A DNA stretch of 45,498 bases, taken from a virus (Duplodnaviria; Heunggongvirae; Uroviricota; Caudoviricetes). Below the pieces are notes generated by a model. The model had not been told where the DNA came from. It was given only the letters and a program-made list of their open reading frames with translations, and made no database searches. The stretch is taken from IMG/VR virus record IMGVR_UViG_2711768044_000004; one strand, 5' to 3'. Shown here piece after piece: positions 23,553 through 40,773 of the stretch (positions are counted from its first letter, which is position 1; each line of letters starts with the position of its first letter). A program made the translations under genes and the position numbers.

Positions 23553-24082
23553 TCATCAATTCCCCAGCACGCCAGCGCACTTTCCTGGTCACGCCGCGAC
23601 ACCTGCCCGTAACAGTTATTTGAGCGGTTCCGGCAGTCTTTACCGCCGTCATATATCCAGCGACGGATTTCAGCACATGCACCTTTCCGGTCTCCGGCGT
23701 TCAGTTTCCGGTAAAACGTTGAGGTGAAGCATTTCGACGGCCCGATGTTGTACGGACAGAATGACGCGATGCCCGCTTTCTGCTGTTCAGTCAGTGGCAC
23801 TTTGATGTTTTTCTCCACCCATGCCAGCGCCTTATCCCGTTCGATGGCGTTCACTCGGTCGCATTTTTCCTTCGTCAGCTTCATGCCGGGGACTACAGGT
23901 CTGCCATCCACCCGGGTGGCACCACGGCAGATAGTCCATATACCTGCGCCATCACGGTATGCAGTAGTGTGGTTGCCTTCTTTTTCATCCAGAAACTGGT
24001 CAAGGATTTCAGGCGCAGAAGCCCCTGCGGAAATCAGTGCCAGAACGGCAGCCGACAGGCCGTATTTGATTTTTGCGTTCAT
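23549..24082 (-). CDS. Signal-anchor-release (SAR) endolysin, T4-lysozyme fold (GH24)
   Basis: 177 aa; weakly hydrophobic Gly/Ala-rich N-terminal segment followed by a lysozyme-like domain, as in phage 21 R. Confidence 0.8.
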
Positions 24083-24194
24083 GGATATTTATCAGGATTT
24101 ATCGGTTCCGAATCCCTGGATATGTTAAGACTTCATCCCGCCAGTGGTGGGCACTGGCCAGGGTATGTCAATCTGATAAACACAGAGGTGACTA

Positions 24195-24454
24195 TGGATT
24201 ATCCAAATCTACCAAAACAAACTTTTGCTGATTTAATCGCACTCAGGCAAGCTGTCGTAGCTCTAATCAACTTGTTGCCGGATAATGAAAAGGAATTCGT
24301 TAAAACAATTCTTAACAGAACTGCCGCCGATTTTTCATCATTCCCACTGACAGATGACCTTGCGGACCTTCCTGAATTAATTGCAGAGTCCTCCATTAAG
24401 CTTACTGAAGAGATTTACTCTCCTCAAAAATCTTCACAAAATTCCTGCGAGTAA
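24195..24454 (+). CDS. Hypothetical 86-aa protein on the strand opposite to the late genes (possible moron)
   Basis: ATG preceded by AGAGG ribosome-binding site; lies in a locally AT-rich island; no recognisable homology. Confidence 0.35.
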
Positions 24455-24605
24455 CTTCAATACAATAATCGTAAAACGCTGCAAACTGCTCATCGCGGCG
24501 TTTTTTTTCATCTTCGGAAGGAATCTGCACCGACAATTTTTTATTCAGTTCAGCAATTTCATTTTCCAGGCGACTTATGCGCCGATTCATTTCTTCAGGG
24601 TTCAT
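24402..24605 (-). CDS. Hypothetical 67-aa coiled-coil protein translationally coupled to the holin
   Basis: ATG 4 nt after the holin stop with a GGGGAG ribosome-binding site; overlaps the 3' end of the opposite-strand ORF. Confidence 0.4.
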   Translation of the reverse strand: MNPEEMNRRISRLENEIAELNKKLSVQIPSEDEKKRRDEQFAAFYDYCIEVTRRNFVKIFEESKSLQ

Positions 24606-24608
24606 CGT

Positions 24609-24821
24609 CTACTCTCCCCGCGCCGACTTACGCCGGTCTTCTTTAATTTTGAAATACAGGTTCGTCAGGTATGTCAGCAGACCAAACAGCAGGCTCCCCA
24701 GCACGCCTATCGCCGTCCACTGTGAAGGCGTCACCTTATCCAGCAACTGAAACAGCCAGTAACCCGTTCCCACCGCCGATGAACCATAGGACACACCTGT
24801 TGCCAGTTTATCCATCTTCAT
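24609..24821 (-). CDS. Phage-21-type pinholin with dual-start motif (Met-Lys-Met)
   Basis: [70 protein letters not shown] closely resembles my recollection of S21; GGAG ribosome-binding site upstream. Confidence 0.8.
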
Positions 24822-24886
24822 AATCCCCGCTCCGTAACACTCCCGCCTGATGACGGGAGCCACGTTTTCCTGCAACACAGGGATGC

Positions 24887-25270
24887 TTATGGCAAAGGCT
24901 GCGCTTCCGCCATACCCTCGCTCCCCGCAGTACCATTGTCTGTCGCTTCACCGCCTGTCGTGGTGGCAGTGCCACTATGCGCCTCTGCTCCTGAAGTATC
25001 CGTTCCCGGCTCCGGTGATGCTCCCGTGCCTGCGGTGGACGCAGCAGCCGCATTTTCAGTTACCGCAGGTTTTTCCTGCGTCTCCGCCACACCAGTATCA
25101 CCTGGCGTCGTCGCCGTCAGACCGGCAAGTGCCACTCTGACTTCCTCATCAATCTGTTTGCTGATGATTTGTCTTACCTGTGCTTCCACAACATTCAGCA
25201 CCACCTGTGCTGACAGCGCCTGTTTCAGTACCTCTGTCGTGACAAGTCCTGTGGTTTTCACTTCTGCCAT
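24887..25270 (-). CDS. Hypothetical protein with a structured N-terminus and a Thr/Gly/Ala/Glu-rich low-complexity tail
   Basis: 127-aa ORF in the late operon orientation; no recognised domain. Confidence 0.45.
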
Positions 25271-25304: not shown

Positions 25305-25487
25305 TTATGGCAGTGGCTGGTTAACTGACTGCATCGTGGATGATGATGCGTATTTAACTTTCTCTGCCGCTGCATCATCAATTTTGCGGCGGACATAATT
25401 ACGTATTACCTTATATCCGCCACTCACCAGATATAACGCACACACCACCGTGCAGAAATACAATAAAATAAGCTGTAAAAATGTCAT
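25305..25487 (-). CDS. Small membrane protein (60 aa, one predicted transmembrane helix)
   Basis: ATG with strong GGGAGGG ribosome-binding site 5 nt upstream; hydrophobic N-terminus followed by a basic segment. Confidence 0.55.
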   Translation of the reverse strand: MTFLQLILLYFCTVVCALYLVSGGYKVIRNYVRRKIDDAAAEKVKYASSSTMQSVNQPLP

Positions 25488-25572
25488 TATCCCTCCCAGT
25501 TATTGATATGGTGTTGACATCGTTAATACCTGTTGGTTAAAAAGGCGTCCGTAATTTTTGCATTGGATATGA

Positions 25573-25614
25573 CGTCATTTGCCGCCGGTTTCTTGTTTTC
25601 CCTTTCCCGGCGGC
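25573..25614 (+). terminator. Plus-strand intrinsic terminator (8-bp GC stem plus T7)
   Basis: gccgccgg ... ccggcggc followed by attttttt on the plus strand; a TTGACA -35-like hexamer lies about 60 nt upstream on the same strand. Confidence 0.45.
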
Positions 25615-25629
25615 ATTTTTTTATCCTGC

Positions 25630-27570
25630 TTACGCGTTATTCACTTCCACCAAAATGCTGTCAATCAGTACCGGATACGTTGCATTACTGGTGATATCGG
25701 TCAGGCGTAACTTGTCTGCCGCAAAAGAACCGACAGGTGACTGAGACAGCATGAACGGTTCCTCGTCCTTACCATCAATCACCGGCGTCACCTGAATGCT
25801 GTTATTACCGGCAAAACGGAATGCCAGCGTATGCCACTCGTTATTAAATGCACCGAATGAACCCAGCTTCGTGTTCTGGTCTGGATTCCCCTTGTGATAC
25901 ATCACGTTAAGGTCTGTGGCATCGCTCTGAACGTAAAACGATGCCAGCAGGTTATGACCGGCATTACCTTCCAGTGTGACGCCCTGAGGCAGCGAAGAAA
26001 CCGGCCAGTACAGCGCCAGTGCGTACTGATTAGCCGTAAGCGCGCCATCAAGTTTAAAACGGCAGCTGACAAGGCCACCTTTTTCCAGCAGGTCGGCACC
26101 ATTACCGGCATCATGCTGCATAAACCATGACTTTCCGGTCTGTTTTGTCAGCTTCAGCGCCTTGCCCCCGCTGGCACCGGCATCATCCACAATAGCGGCA
26201 CTACCGCCTTCTGCCCCCCAGCCCTGTGGCGTCAGTGCTCCGCCTGACTCCGATGCACGGTAAGAAAACAGCGTCGTCATTGATTTCCCGTCCGTTGACG
26301 GTGTTGATGGCGTGCCAGTGGATGGCTTCTCATCCGGTGGTGTCACAGCCTGTCCACCCATAACTTCAGCCGTGCGTCCCGCATGGAGCAGAATGGCTGA
26401 GGACAGACGGTCAGAAATGATGCCCCTGCGTGCCCATGAGCTGAAATGGCTGTCACGCTGTGTGGAGACAAAACTGCCCTGGGTACGGGATGCCGCACCG
26501 TAATACCCGACAGCCACAATATCCGGGTCTTCCGCCGGAGCATTCGTTGGCGTGTTCTGTCCATTCTCATCCGTCAGGAACGGCACAAAGAAAATATTCT
26601 GTGCGGTCAGATTTTTATATGCGCCATAGACTGTTTCATACTGCGTGGCATACGTGTTTTTCCAGTAATACGTGGTATCACCACAAATCCACGGCACCGT
26701 GGCAGCATTTCCACTCACGCACTGCGCTGCAAGTGGAGACAGGTCGGTTCTGAACTGCTGAACCATGGCTGTGAATAAACCATTATGCTGCTGACTTCCT
26801 GAAGCAAGGTCTGCCTCTCCCTGCATCCATACCACAGCCAGTAATCTGTTTTTCTGGTTCTTCTCCAGCGCCGCTCTGGTGCGGCTGAGCAGGTCCTGAT
26901 ACAGGGGTTTACCGGCTCCCCAGCGTGAAGAATCAGCGGAAGCACCGCTGGCCTCACTGAATGAGCCGTCATCCCCGGTGGTGAATGCCGAACCACCACG
27001 ACAGCAGGGAACCAGAAGTATCCCGGCATTCTGCGGAATATAAGGCAGCAGTTTTTTGGCAATATGCAGCCCCTGACCGACACAACCATACTGCCCTTTA
27101 CTCAGGTCAGCTTTAGGGTGGTTTATCCCGCTCATGTCCTGCACATCATGCAGGCAGTGGTCTGCCGGAATGACATCATTATAAGAACAGGCTTCGCCAC
27201 CCGGCGTTACCGTACTGCGGCGTGACAGTTGCTTAATGCGCGGCTCTGTGCGGTCAAATGAATCCGGTAACGGAAGCCCTTCACCGTAGGCCATGCCATT
27301 TGACTGCCCGGCGAGTACCACCACGTAGTAATAGTCAGGTGCACCAGAGGTTATTGTGGTCTGTGAACCATCACCGTCATCAGGAACTTCAACAGGAATC
27401 CTGACTTCACCTTCTGCGGCAACAGCCTGAATAAACTTCATCCCGTTATCGTCATACGAAGTAAACGGCGAACCATATGGCTGCCACCCTTCACTTATTT
27501 TTTCTGACAGCTTTTTTTGCAGTTCATCACCGCTACTGGCAGAAACCAGATCGTAATGTTTAAACGCCAT
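25630..27570 (-). CDS. Prophage-type sialate O-acetylesterase (NanS-p-like, SGNH/DUF303 esterase)
   Basis: 646 aa from the ATG with a GGAGG ribosome-binding site; GQSNG esterase motif near the N-terminus; occupies the position this gene family holds downstream of stx in Shiga-toxin phages. Confidence 0.7.
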   Translation of the reverse strand: MAFKHYDLVSASSGDELQKKLSEKISEGWQPYGSPFTSYDDNGMKFIQAVAAEGEVRIPVEVPDDGDGSQTTITSGAPDYYYVVVLAGQSNGMAYGEGLPLPDSFDRTEPRIKQLSRRSTVTPGGEACSYNDVIPADHCLHDVQDMSGINHPKADLSKGQYGCVGQGLHIAKKLLPYIPQNAGILLVPCCRGGSAFTTGDDGSFSEASGASADSSRWGAGKPLYQDLLSRTRAALEKNQKNRLLAVVWMQGEADLASGSQQHNGLFTAMVQQFRTDLSPLAAQCVSGNAATVPWICGDTTYYWKNTYATQYETVYGAYKNLTAQNIFFVPFLTDENGQNTPTNAPAEDPDIVAVGYYGAASRTQGSFVSTQRDSHFSSWARRGIISDRLSSAILLHAGRTAEVMGGQAVTPPDEKPSTGTPSTPSTDGKSMTTLFSYRASESGGALTPQGWGAEGGSAAIVDDAGASGGKALKLTKQTGKSWFMQHDAGNGADLLEKGGLVSCRFKLDGALTANQYALALYWPVSSLPQGVTLEGNAGHNLLASFYVQSDATDLNVMYHKGNPDQNTKLGSFGAFNNEWHTLAFRFAGNNSIQVTPVIDGKDEEPFMLSQSPVGSFAADKLRLTDITSNATYPVLIDSILVEVNNA

Positions 27571-27767
27571 TATTCCTCCCCTTGCCGGGATTATCCTGAA
27601 CAGTTCGGCTGCACGGAGATTCAAAGAAGATAACTGCAGCCCACAAAACGAAAAAGGCCACGCAGTTGCGCAGCCTTATAAGAGATGGTAAAAATCAAAA
27701 AAATAATAACGAAAATATCTTGTTTATATTCATGCGACCTGCCCGTACCCACTATGGGCATTTTTCC

Positions 27768-27794
27768 CATAAAAAAGCCCCTCCGGAGAGGGGC
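27768..27794 (-). terminator. Strong intrinsic terminator between the tRNA cluster and the esterase gene
   Basis: Minus strand GCCCCUC-UCCG-GAGGGGC followed by UUUUUUAU. Confidence 0.5.
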
Positions 27795-28061
27795 TGGTAT
27801 ACGCATTCATTTCCATCATCTGCATGGTGCCGGGTGCCTCCCGGTGAGTTCAGTATCAGCACCTGAATCCGCGATTATCCCATATACCTACTCGCTGATT
27901 GCCCCTCCGCACAGGGGGATTCACCATGCAAAACTTTTTTAACAACTCTCCGTCAACCAGACAATCATCAACTGCCTGAATTGTGAGGCATTTAACATTT
28001 CACTGTCCGGTGTCTTTCCTGTAATAAAAAGCCCGCAAAAGCGAGCCAGGGAAAATAAGTG

Positions 28062-28138
28062 TGGCGCGTTGTACTGGATTCGAACCAGTGGCCGATTGCT
28101 TAGAAGGCAATTGCTCTGTCCGGCTGAGCTAACAACGC
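28062..28138 (-). tRNA. tRNA-Arg, anticodon UCU (reads AGA)
   Basis: Hand-folded cloverleaf: acceptor GCGTTGT, D-arm GCTC/GAGC, anticodon loop CTTCTAA, T-loop GGTTCGAATCC, 3' CCA. Confidence 0.75.
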
Positions 28139-28141
28139 TGA

Positions 28142-28218
28142 ATACCGATAATGGACCGCCATCGGGGACCCGCCCCCCGCGCAACCAGCTTCGAAGGCTG
28201 GCGCTCTGTCCTGATGAG
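28142..28218 (-). tRNA. tRNA-like gene, apparent anticodon UCG (Arg) with a non-canonical T-loop; possibly degenerate
   Basis: Acceptor CCGCCAT/ATGGCGG and D-arm and anticodon stems pair, but the T-arm is CGGGG-GGCGGGT-CCCCG rather than the usual TTCRANY loop. Confidence 0.45.
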
Positions 28219-28225
28219 CTAATGG

Positions 28226-28301
28226 CGGTATGTGATGGTGGCCCTTGCTGGATTTGAACCAGCGACCTGGCGATTATGAGTCGCTCGCTCTCACCACTGA
28301 G
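28226..28301 (-). tRNA. tRNA with CAU anticodon (Met or lysidine-modified Ile2 type)
   Basis: Hand-folded cloverleaf: acceptor GGCCCTT, anticodon loop CTCATAA, T-loop GGTTCAAATCC, 3' CCA. Confidence 0.75.
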
Positions 28302-28360
28302 CTAAAGGGCCGGGAGCAGAATAATAATGGTGCGTAATTAATTCTGCAATCTCATCCGTT

Positions 28361-32411: not shown

Positions 32412-32567
32412 TTACTCCTCAGGTTCGTAGACTGTGAAGACAGCGACCTCCGTCTGGCCGGTTCGGATTCGTACCTCGCAGAGGTCTTTCCTCGTTACCA
32501 GTGCCGTCACTATGACGGTTAAACAGATGACGATCAGGGCGATTAACATCGCCTTTTGCTGCTTCAT
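32412..32567 (-). CDS. hokD: Hok-family type I toxin (51 aa), apparently identical or near-identical to K-12 HokD/RelF
   Basis: MKQQKAMLIALIVICLTVIVTALVTRKDLCEVRIRTGQTEVAVFTVYEPEE matches my recollection of HokD. Confidence 0.85.
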   Translation of the reverse strand: MKQQKAMLIALIVICLTVIVTALVTRKDLCEVRIRTGQTEVAVFTVYEPEE

Positions 32568-32624
32568 AGCCTGCTTCTCCTTGCCTTTCGGCACGTAAGA
32601 GGCTAACCTACGCGTGCAAGTCAT
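32412..32624 (-). CDS. mok-like overlapping reading frame that would couple hok translation
   Basis: In-frame upstream extension of hok (70-aa ORF) as in hok/mok/sok loci. Confidence 0.45.
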   Translation of the reverse strand: MTCTRRLASYVPKGKEKQAMKQQKAMLIALIVICLTVIVTALVTRKDLCEVRIRTGQTEVAVFTVYEPEE

Positions 32625-32834
32625 AGATATGGCCTCAGATTAATGTTAAGCGTCTTGCCGGACGCGTAATGTTAACTGGGGCTTTTCTCTATCTGCCTTT
32701 TGGTGTTCATGCCTGAGACAGATAGCCCCAAGCACCCGCAGCGATTCTACAAAAACAAACTATTATTTTCTATCCCCCTTCACAGTCTCATTTCTGACTA
32801 TACTCATCGTTCACACAACACAAAAGGTATAAAA

Positions 32835-34090: not shown

Positions 34091-34447
34091 TTATTCTGGC
34101 CTGGTTTTTGTCGCCCTGCGTATCCGCGCTTTCGCATTACGCTCAATCTGGATTAGCTTTTCTATATTTTTACGCCTTTCCCGTTCCTCCTGCCTCAATA
34201 GCTTTACATCATCCGCCAGTCTGGTTTCTCTTTTCGCCACAGAGAGCATCCAGTCAAATGGTTCCACCACCGCACCGCATATTTTGCACCGGACCTGACG
34301 CTCTTTTTCATCAACCCGGACAGAGGCGTGATGGCAGTATGGTCTTTCCGATGGCTCATAAATAAAATTAACCTGATTACGTGGGTCATCCTCTTTTACC
34401 GGAAATAAAACGATATTGCTTAACTCATCTTCTGGATTTATTTCCAC
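34091..34447 (-). CDS. Hypothetical protein with a Cys/His cluster and a coiled-coil tail (GTG start)
   Basis: GTG preceded by AAGGAG; start lies within a few bases of the stop of the upstream gene; C-HH...C-x-x-C motif. Confidence 0.4.
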   Translation of the reverse strand: MEINPEDELSNIVLFPVKEDDPRNQVNFIYEPSERPYCHHASVRVDEKERQVRCKICGAVVEPFDWMLSVAKRETRLADDVKLLRQEERERRKNIEKLIQIERNAKARIRRATKTRPE

Positions 34448-40720: not shown

Positions 40721-40773
40721 TTTCTGGTGACGTTTGGCGGTATCAGTTTTACTCCGTGACTGCTCTGCCGCCG
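40721..40773 (+). ncRNA. dicF: DicF small RNA (translational inhibitor of ftsZ in K-12)
   Basis: tttctggtgacgtttggcggtatcagttttactccgtgactgctctgccgcc followed by a T-run; matches the DicF sequence as I remember it apart from about one base at the 3' end. Confidence 0.75.

Follow-up and report, generated by a model that had tools for sequence, protein, structure and literature searches.

A short RNA encoded on the plus strand of the window (the whole stretch of DNA analysed here, 45,498 nt) is, judging by its sequence, an allele of EcOnc33, a regulatory RNA that binds Hfq and is encoded by lambdoid prophages of E. coli. RNAs of this kind have been described before, and what is new here is the allele, in which the pairing region is altered. 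This EcOnc33-type sRNA gene and the adjacent minus-strand gene of a small membrane peptide, DUF1378, are very likely two separate genes lying back to back, while a hok/sok-type toxin-antitoxin pairing of the RNA and the peptide is not supported.

The window covers the late region of an E. coli prophage of the lambdoid type, whose minus strand carries, in this order, an STnc100/PasD-like pR' leader RNA, the esterase, the 60-aa ORF, a DUF826-like gene, a P21-type holin, a SAR-type lysozyme and Rz/Rz1. The original prediction had placed a single-helix peptide with a strong ribosome-binding site between the esterase and the holin; the ORF and its GGGAGGG motif are there as described, but the DUF826-like gene intervenes before the holin. 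The features of the locus are as follows.

24609..24878, minus strand: P21-type class II holin (Pfam Phage_holin_2_1, 110 bits, residues 23-85)
24887..25270, minus strand: DUF826-like late gene between DUF1378 and the holin (Pfam DUF826, E 1.3e-4; phrog_311; DUF826 annotation in relatives)
25305..25487, minus strand: DUF1378 gene of the late operon, encoding a 60-aa single-pass membrane protein (ORF list, Pfam, phrog_494)
25491..25497, minus strand: Shine-Dalgarno sequence GGGAGGG of DUF1378, 3 nt 5' of the ATG (direct sequence reading)
25514..25519, plus strand: -35 hexamer TTGACA, 26 nt from the DUF1378 start codon (direct reading, pattern search)
25538..25543, plus strand: -10 element TAAAAA after an 18-nt spacer (pattern search)
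25547..25622, plus strand: EcOnc33-family sRNA of ~72-78 nt, 5' end predicted at ~25544-25551 (covariance model R1, identity to Sakai)
25547..25579, plus strand: 5' domain, the equivalent of the EcOnc33 region ligated to arcA (alignment, CLASH hybrid)
25580..25622, plus strand: Rho-independent terminator UGCCGCCGG / CCGGCGGCA, with a 9-bp GC stem (25580-25588 and 25607-25615), an 18-nt loop and T7/U7 at 25616-25622 (folding, pattern search)
25592..25603, plus strand: loop motif CUUGUUUUCCCU, invariant in all EcOnc33-type alleles aligned
25630..27624, minus strand: sialate O-acetylesterase of the NanS-p type, DUF1737 + SASA + DUF6645 (ORF list, Pfam)

The plus-strand unit and the EcOnc33 family

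The perfect TTGACA hexamer proposed on the plus strand is present, and the -10 element proposed about 17 nt further on corresponds to the same site, TTAAAA being read one base earlier than the best hexamer, TAAAAA, with its 18-nt spacer. In the 45.5 kb there is a single occurrence of the pattern TTGACA-N17/18-TAAAAA, compared to 0.01 expected. The -10 element does not have the usually critical final T, which counts against the main explanation, and a generic promoter scan, whose rule demands T at -10 position 6, did not call the sRNA promoter. The strong hairpin followed by a T-run was likewise recovered as predicted (9-bp stem, T7, -17.8 kcal/mol, z = -4.5), its pattern being unique in the window, although a generic terminator scan with a loop limit of 8 nt missed it. 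The hairpin lacks a U-run when read from the minus strand, which makes it a terminator for plus-strand transcription only. The stop codon of the esterase, the late gene upstream, abuts this terminator (25630-25632), the end of the hairpin being 8 nt away.

The covariance model R1 was built from 12 EcOnc33-type alleles, one of them the EcOnc33 of Sakai prophage Sp6, with the window left out. It matched the window at 25547-25622 (+) with 84.4 bits and E 1.4e-16, aligned over the whole model (positions 1-78 of 78), and the window is identical to Sakai EcOnc33 at 86% of positions over the spacer and 77% over the RNA. Given the full-length match and the 77% identity, the plus-strand unit is a member of the EcOnc33 family. 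Thus, the short antisense RNA of the original prediction stands as an sRNA gene, with a length of ~72-78 nt instead of ~60 nt. Rfam models at gathering thresholds gave nothing at the sRNA site. A second, weak R1 match at 34272-34308 (+), with 17 bits and E 0.23, is probably just a terminator-like hairpin.

The esterase-DUF1378 spacer has the same strand and neighbours as in Sakai Sp6 (ECs1527/ECs1528) and in EDL933. In it the RNA gene is convergent with the esterase and has its own promoter, TTGACA-18-TAAAAA, identical to that of Sakai, and an intrinsic terminator. Of 5426 complete E. coli genomes, 365 have homologues of the spacer, every one between an esterase and a DUF1378 gene, and the promoter, the stem and the loop motif are invariant among them.

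Tree et al. 2014 (PMC4104026) count EcOnc33, on the minus strand of prophage Sp6, as one of the orphan Hfq-binding sites in O157:H7 Sakai; it was recovered in 5/5 Hfq-CRAC data sets, its terminator was flagged, and it measured ~71 nt on a Northern blot (Table S2, PMC4104026). The coordinates of Tree et al. belong to an older Sakai record, and identity with EcOnc33 was established via the sequence of the Northern probe, which maps exactly to the Sakai Sp6 and EDL933 spacers, in the orientation detecting RNA antisense to the late genes. In RNase E-CLASH, the EcOnc33 5' region CCUGCAUGUUUUGCUUUGGAU was ligated to ECs5359 across its start codon (PMC5286369, Table EV7), the hybrid being represented by 5 reads in 2 replicates with FDR 2.7e-4 (PMC5286369). 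ECs5359 is arcA, and this hybrid is one replicated interaction, with ~40 EcOnc33 entries in the CLASH data (PMC5286369).

Expression, Hfq binding and pairing in trans have thus been shown by others for relatives of the window RNA (Hfq binding and the ~71-nt RNA, for the Sakai copy), and by analogy we expect expression and trans action of the window allele as well. The sigma-70 promoter TTGACA-18-TAAAAA would drive synthesis of a ~75-nt RNA stopping at the strong intrinsic terminator beside the esterase stop. As with EcOnc33, PasA and PasC, this RNA is probably made in the lysogen; Hfq would hold it through the U-tail and the U-rich stretch, and it would pair in trans with host or prophage mRNAs.

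The DUF1378 peptide and its late-region setting

The peptide belongs to the Pfam family PF07125 (DUF1378), which it matches over residues 1-59 with 105.6 bits against a gathering score of 25, and also to phrog_494. It has an N-terminal helix with hydrophobic residues 4-24, followed by a basic juxtamembrane stretch. The dN/dS ratio relative to its relatives is 0.07-0.20 (first 45 codons), and hence we are dealing with a real coding gene under purifying selection. The family is narrow (306 clusters), almost every named member coming from E. coli or Shigella, and the window protein is 100% identical to one E. coli protein cluster and to the IMG/VR locus L014. A profile search of genome contigs with the DUF1378 alignment confirmed no locus.

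A toxin family for the peptide, for which a profile-HMM search had been recommended, was found neither in Pfam (E<=0.1) nor in NCBIfam (no match at all) nor, beyond noise, in PADLOC; the search returned DUF1378 instead. Two candidates were rejected as noise: Pfam Brr6_like_C_C (13.3 bits, marginal, below the cut-off and unrelated) and PADLOC PtuB (weak, 14 bits). A literature search on DUF1378 yielded annotation mentions only and no report of toxicity on over-expression.

No promoter-like minus-strand site was seen in the 142-nt spacer (25488-25629) by a consensus scan, which is a weak test; as no promoter of its own was found there, the DUF1378 mRNA should exist only after Q-dependent late transcription. 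DUF1378 would be a conserved small inner-membrane protein made from the Q-antiterminated late transcript, which would run from pR' through the esterase, DUF1378, DUF826, the holin, the endolysin and Rz/Rz1. In Stenotrophomonas phage BUCT708 (L013:1221-2653), DUF1378 is the last gene of a cassette with a pinholin, a SAR endolysin and Rz/Rz1; its ATG overlaps the Rz stop, implying translational coupling, and there is no sRNA slot there. The coupling to Rz suggests that DUF1378 is functionally part of the lysis module, and we infer that it is most likely an accessory of the lysis cassette.

Several other features of the window are worth recording. The true start of the holin is probably the M-K-M dual-start motif near 24821/24815. 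A reverse-oriented ORF lies within the lysis cassette at 23969-24454 (+), with a probable start near 24194 and a phrog_2572 match (E 2e-48); it is flanked by a truncated YdfR-like ORF (24402-24605, minus strand) and the lysozyme, and the relatives L005 and L006 have a hypothetical protein annotated on the same strand. The STnc100/PasD-like RNA (27765-27957, minus strand, 138 bits) represents the pR' leader/tR' region and is situated immediately 5' of the esterase, with no intervening stx genes. Three tRNA genes (28065-28311, minus strand) separate the Q region from the pR' leader, and the related prophage L005 has tRNA genes for Arg, Arg and Ile at this place. Finally, a full-length DicF sRNA is located at 40722-40773 (+), with 72.5 bits.

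A conserved slot with a variable RNA body

We compared the regions upstream of DUF1378 in 84 loci (80 IMG/VR DUF1378 loci plus the window, Sakai, 933W and 1720a-02), which comprise 44 distinct versions. The layout of promoter, body and terminator on the antisense strand is kept in all 44; these features are far beyond chance. The -35 box reads TTGAC[ATG], with a single exception, TTTACT, and lies 15-26 nt from the DUF1378 ATG in 84/84 loci. The spacer between the -35 and -10 elements is 17 or 18 nt, and the -10 element is TAAAAA in 41 versions, with TAAAAC, TAAAAG and TAGAAA seen once each; the flanking sequence is unrelated. The bodies, 72-115 nt long, end in a strong terminator (-17 to -32 kcal/mol) beside the esterase stop and fall into at least eight mutually unalignable types. 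Lambdoid and Stx phages have here a conserved slot for an sRNA, in which the promoter and the terminator are fixed and the body is swapped or diversified.

Two of these versions deserve separate mention. The first is an EcOnc33-type allele of L060-L067 and L004 (E. coli LZHX12), whose promoter region has lost 11 nt; the deletion places a TTGACA from further upstream 17 nt from TAAAAA, so that a promoter is kept. The same allele carries a 15-nt insertion duplicating UUUUUGCU in the 5' domain. The slot allele of the Stx2 phage 933W, in the L0105-L0106 spacer (L011:2366-2500, minus strand), has TTGACA-17-TAAAAA, a body with UUUUCUCCAUAGG and the terminator CCGCCAGCG; no name for it occurs in the EcOnc entries consulted.

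PasA and PasC occupy this slot too, lying between the lysis genes and the sialate esterase, on the opposite strand and convergent with the esterase ('> < >'). In EPEC E2348/69 both depend on Hfq for their stability, and RIL-seq has given tens of partners in trans for them (Pearl Mizrahi 2021, PMC8550237), and the esterase-PasA/PasC-holin arrangement is widespread (Zhu, Shabalina and Storz 2026 preprint). PasA, PasC and a second unit in prophage PP2 have TTGACA followed by an A-rich -10 element, as in the window slot, and in PasC and the second PP2 unit the terminator abuts the esterase stop, again as in the window. The bodies of PasA and PasC, on the other hand, cannot be aligned with the window RNA, only the promoter hexamers being alignable; R1 gave no match at E<=10 to PasA (L001:2616-2700) or PasC (L002:2833-2910), and, unlike the window, their loci have no DUF1378 and no DUF826. 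The second PP2 unit of E2348/69 (L001:2466-2570, minus strand) has a TTGACA-18-GAAAAA promoter and a terminator. It follows PasA directly, adjoins the stop codon of the esterase and corresponds to the 236-nt 3' end of PasA described as 'minor'; hence the PP2 slot consists of two tandem sRNA units.

More distant similarities were seen with two other groups. Esr41 (RF02676) is an Hfq-type sRNA of ~70 nt, and its model gives weak full-length matches in the window (18.9 bits) and to the 933W allele (28.1 bits); Esr41 and the 933W allele share UUUUCUCCAU(A/G)GG and a CGCC(A/G)GC terminator. Membership in this family was rejected for the window RNA (18.9 bits, E 0.12-0.41, against a gathering score of 102), the similarity being mostly in the terminator, and the score of the 933W allele does not justify it either; Esr41 itself resides in the island SpLE1, not in a lambdoid late region. 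The 'anti-sRNAs' AsxR and AgvB (Tree et al. 2014) are, like the window RNA, short prophage sRNA genes in moron positions, convergent with late transcription, and, like the slot RNAs, have a conserved 3' part and a variable 5' part. They differ in position, as their slot is upstream of the esterase, next to stx and downstream of pR', and their sequences are unrelated; neither of the Rfam AsxR and AgvB models matches the sRNA site.

Possible action in cis, and the altered 5' domain

If the RNA acted in cis, it would pair with its perfect complement in the late transcript and restrain DUF1378 or the downstream lysis genes. We regard such control as unlikely, and equally so its conceivable routes, that is, RNase III cleavage, a blocked ribosome standby site or transcriptional interference, by which the RNA would serve as a type I antitoxin or as a lysis guard against leaky late transcription. 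The complementarity is perfect by construction, and it spans only late-transcript positions ~60-135 nt upstream of the DUF1378 ATG, with no overlap with the Shine-Dalgarno sequence or the ORF. In tisB/istR-1 the antitoxin binds ~100 nt upstream of the ribosome-binding site, and the spacing observed here resembles that system. There is also a general likeness to hok/sok and tisB/istR-1, in that a small hydrophobic peptide lies beside an opposite short RNA complementary to the region upstream of the peptide, and the size and topology of DUF1378 are those of a type I toxin. The constant position of the sRNA promoter relative to the DUF1378 start in all sampled loci speaks for action in cis and counts against a purely trans role, as the latter needs no such tight linkage. 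A freely drifting body between a fixed promoter and terminator is, too, what a pure cis-antisense RNA would be permitted.

If the RNA and the peptide formed an obligate pair, one would not be found without the other. The slot is complete and of full length without DUF1378, and also without DUF826, as esterase-PasA-holin in 671 of 5426 E. coli genomes, whereas BUCT708 has a DUF1378 gene coupled to Rz and no slot. Thus, the two do not constitute an obligate toxin-antitoxin pair. Predicted duplex energies, calculated with intramolecular structure ignored, which makes them uninformative, were weaker than the background for the sRNA with the DUF1378 initiation region and no better than it for the start regions of the lysis genes. 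Among the ~40 EcOnc33 entries in CLASH there is no hybrid with ECs1528, the Sakai DUF1378 gene. The EcOnc33-type 5' domain and loop are conserved beyond the needs of pairing in cis. Moreover, the window pair differs from hok/sok and tisB/istR-1 in having no toxin-family match, no peptide promoter (by the consensus scan) and no overlap with the RBS or ORF, in the independent occurrence of the partners, and in the Hfq association and trans targets of the RNA's family. These differences argue against the hok/sok-type geometry put forward in the original prediction, and the cis-antisense or toxin-antitoxin reading as a whole is quite unlikely, although in lytic growth some antisense action of the RNA on the late transcript is conceivable. 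A canonical hok/sok locus is located elsewhere in the window, at 32412-32737 (minus strand), with an Rfam sok match of 111.5 bits and a 70-aa mok/hok frame ending in a Hok-like peptide, and offers an example of the genuine layout for comparison.

It is similarly improbable that the slot, besides any role in trans, guards the lysis module in cis, its transcript or convergent transcription limiting the production of DUF1378, the holin and the endolysin from leaky read-through in the lysogen. If this were true, DUF1378 and the RNA would form a lysis-coupled, type I toxin-antitoxin-like pair, and the hypervariable bodies would be tolerated because complementarity in cis is automatic.

We return to the EcOnc33-type sRNA. 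The window allele shares the slot, strand, promoter, terminator and loop motif with Sakai EcOnc33, but its 5' pairing region is altered at 5-6 otherwise invariant positions, and its loop is 6 nt shorter. The 5' domain of the window reads CCGUAAUUUUUGCAUUGG, where CCUGCAU(G/U)UUUUGCU(U/A)(U/A)GG is conserved among the 12 other alleles; the conserved pairing region CCUGCAU(G/U)UUUUGC is absent from the window, which reads CCGUAAUUUUUGCA, and hence the allele has a different seed. CCUGCAU is replaced by CCGUAAU and GCUUUGG by GCAUUGG, at positions invariant in the 12 other alleles, and the CCGUAAU...GCAUUGG version is common to the window and L014 only. According to a crude estimate, the predicted pairing with the arcA start region weakens from -20.7 kcal/mol in Sakai to -15.0 kcal/mol in the window. 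As the changes fall into the invariant 5' pairing region, the targets of the window allele probably differ.

The altered 5' region suggests either that the set of targets has changed or that the allele is decaying. In the latter case the window copy would be a non-functional EcOnc33 allele that has retained its promoter and terminator and lost its pairing region. The replacement of two otherwise invariant motifs, the weaker predicted pairing with arcA and the occurrence of this version in just one other locus would all be compatible with decay. However, not only the promoter and the terminator but also the loop motif and the U-rich stretch are intact, the changes form a possible 5' stem GGCGUC/GACGUC, and seed turnover is the normal evolutionary mode at the slot, making decay very unlikely. 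Still less credible is the absence of any RNA gene, with the hairpin and T-run insulating the esterase against stray antisense transcription and the promoter hexamers being fortuitous: the -10 element is weak and escaped the generic scan, but the exact promoter pattern is hardly expected in a window of this size, it is kept across unrelated bodies and restored after a deletion, and the Sakai relative is a discrete Hfq-bound RNA.

As EcOnc33, PasA/PasC and the 933W-type RNAs share one slot, there is a simple rule for locating further alleles. In pathogenic E. coli, host regulation is rewired by sRNAs that prophages carry, and this locus adds to them an allele of EcOnc33 whose pairing region is altered.
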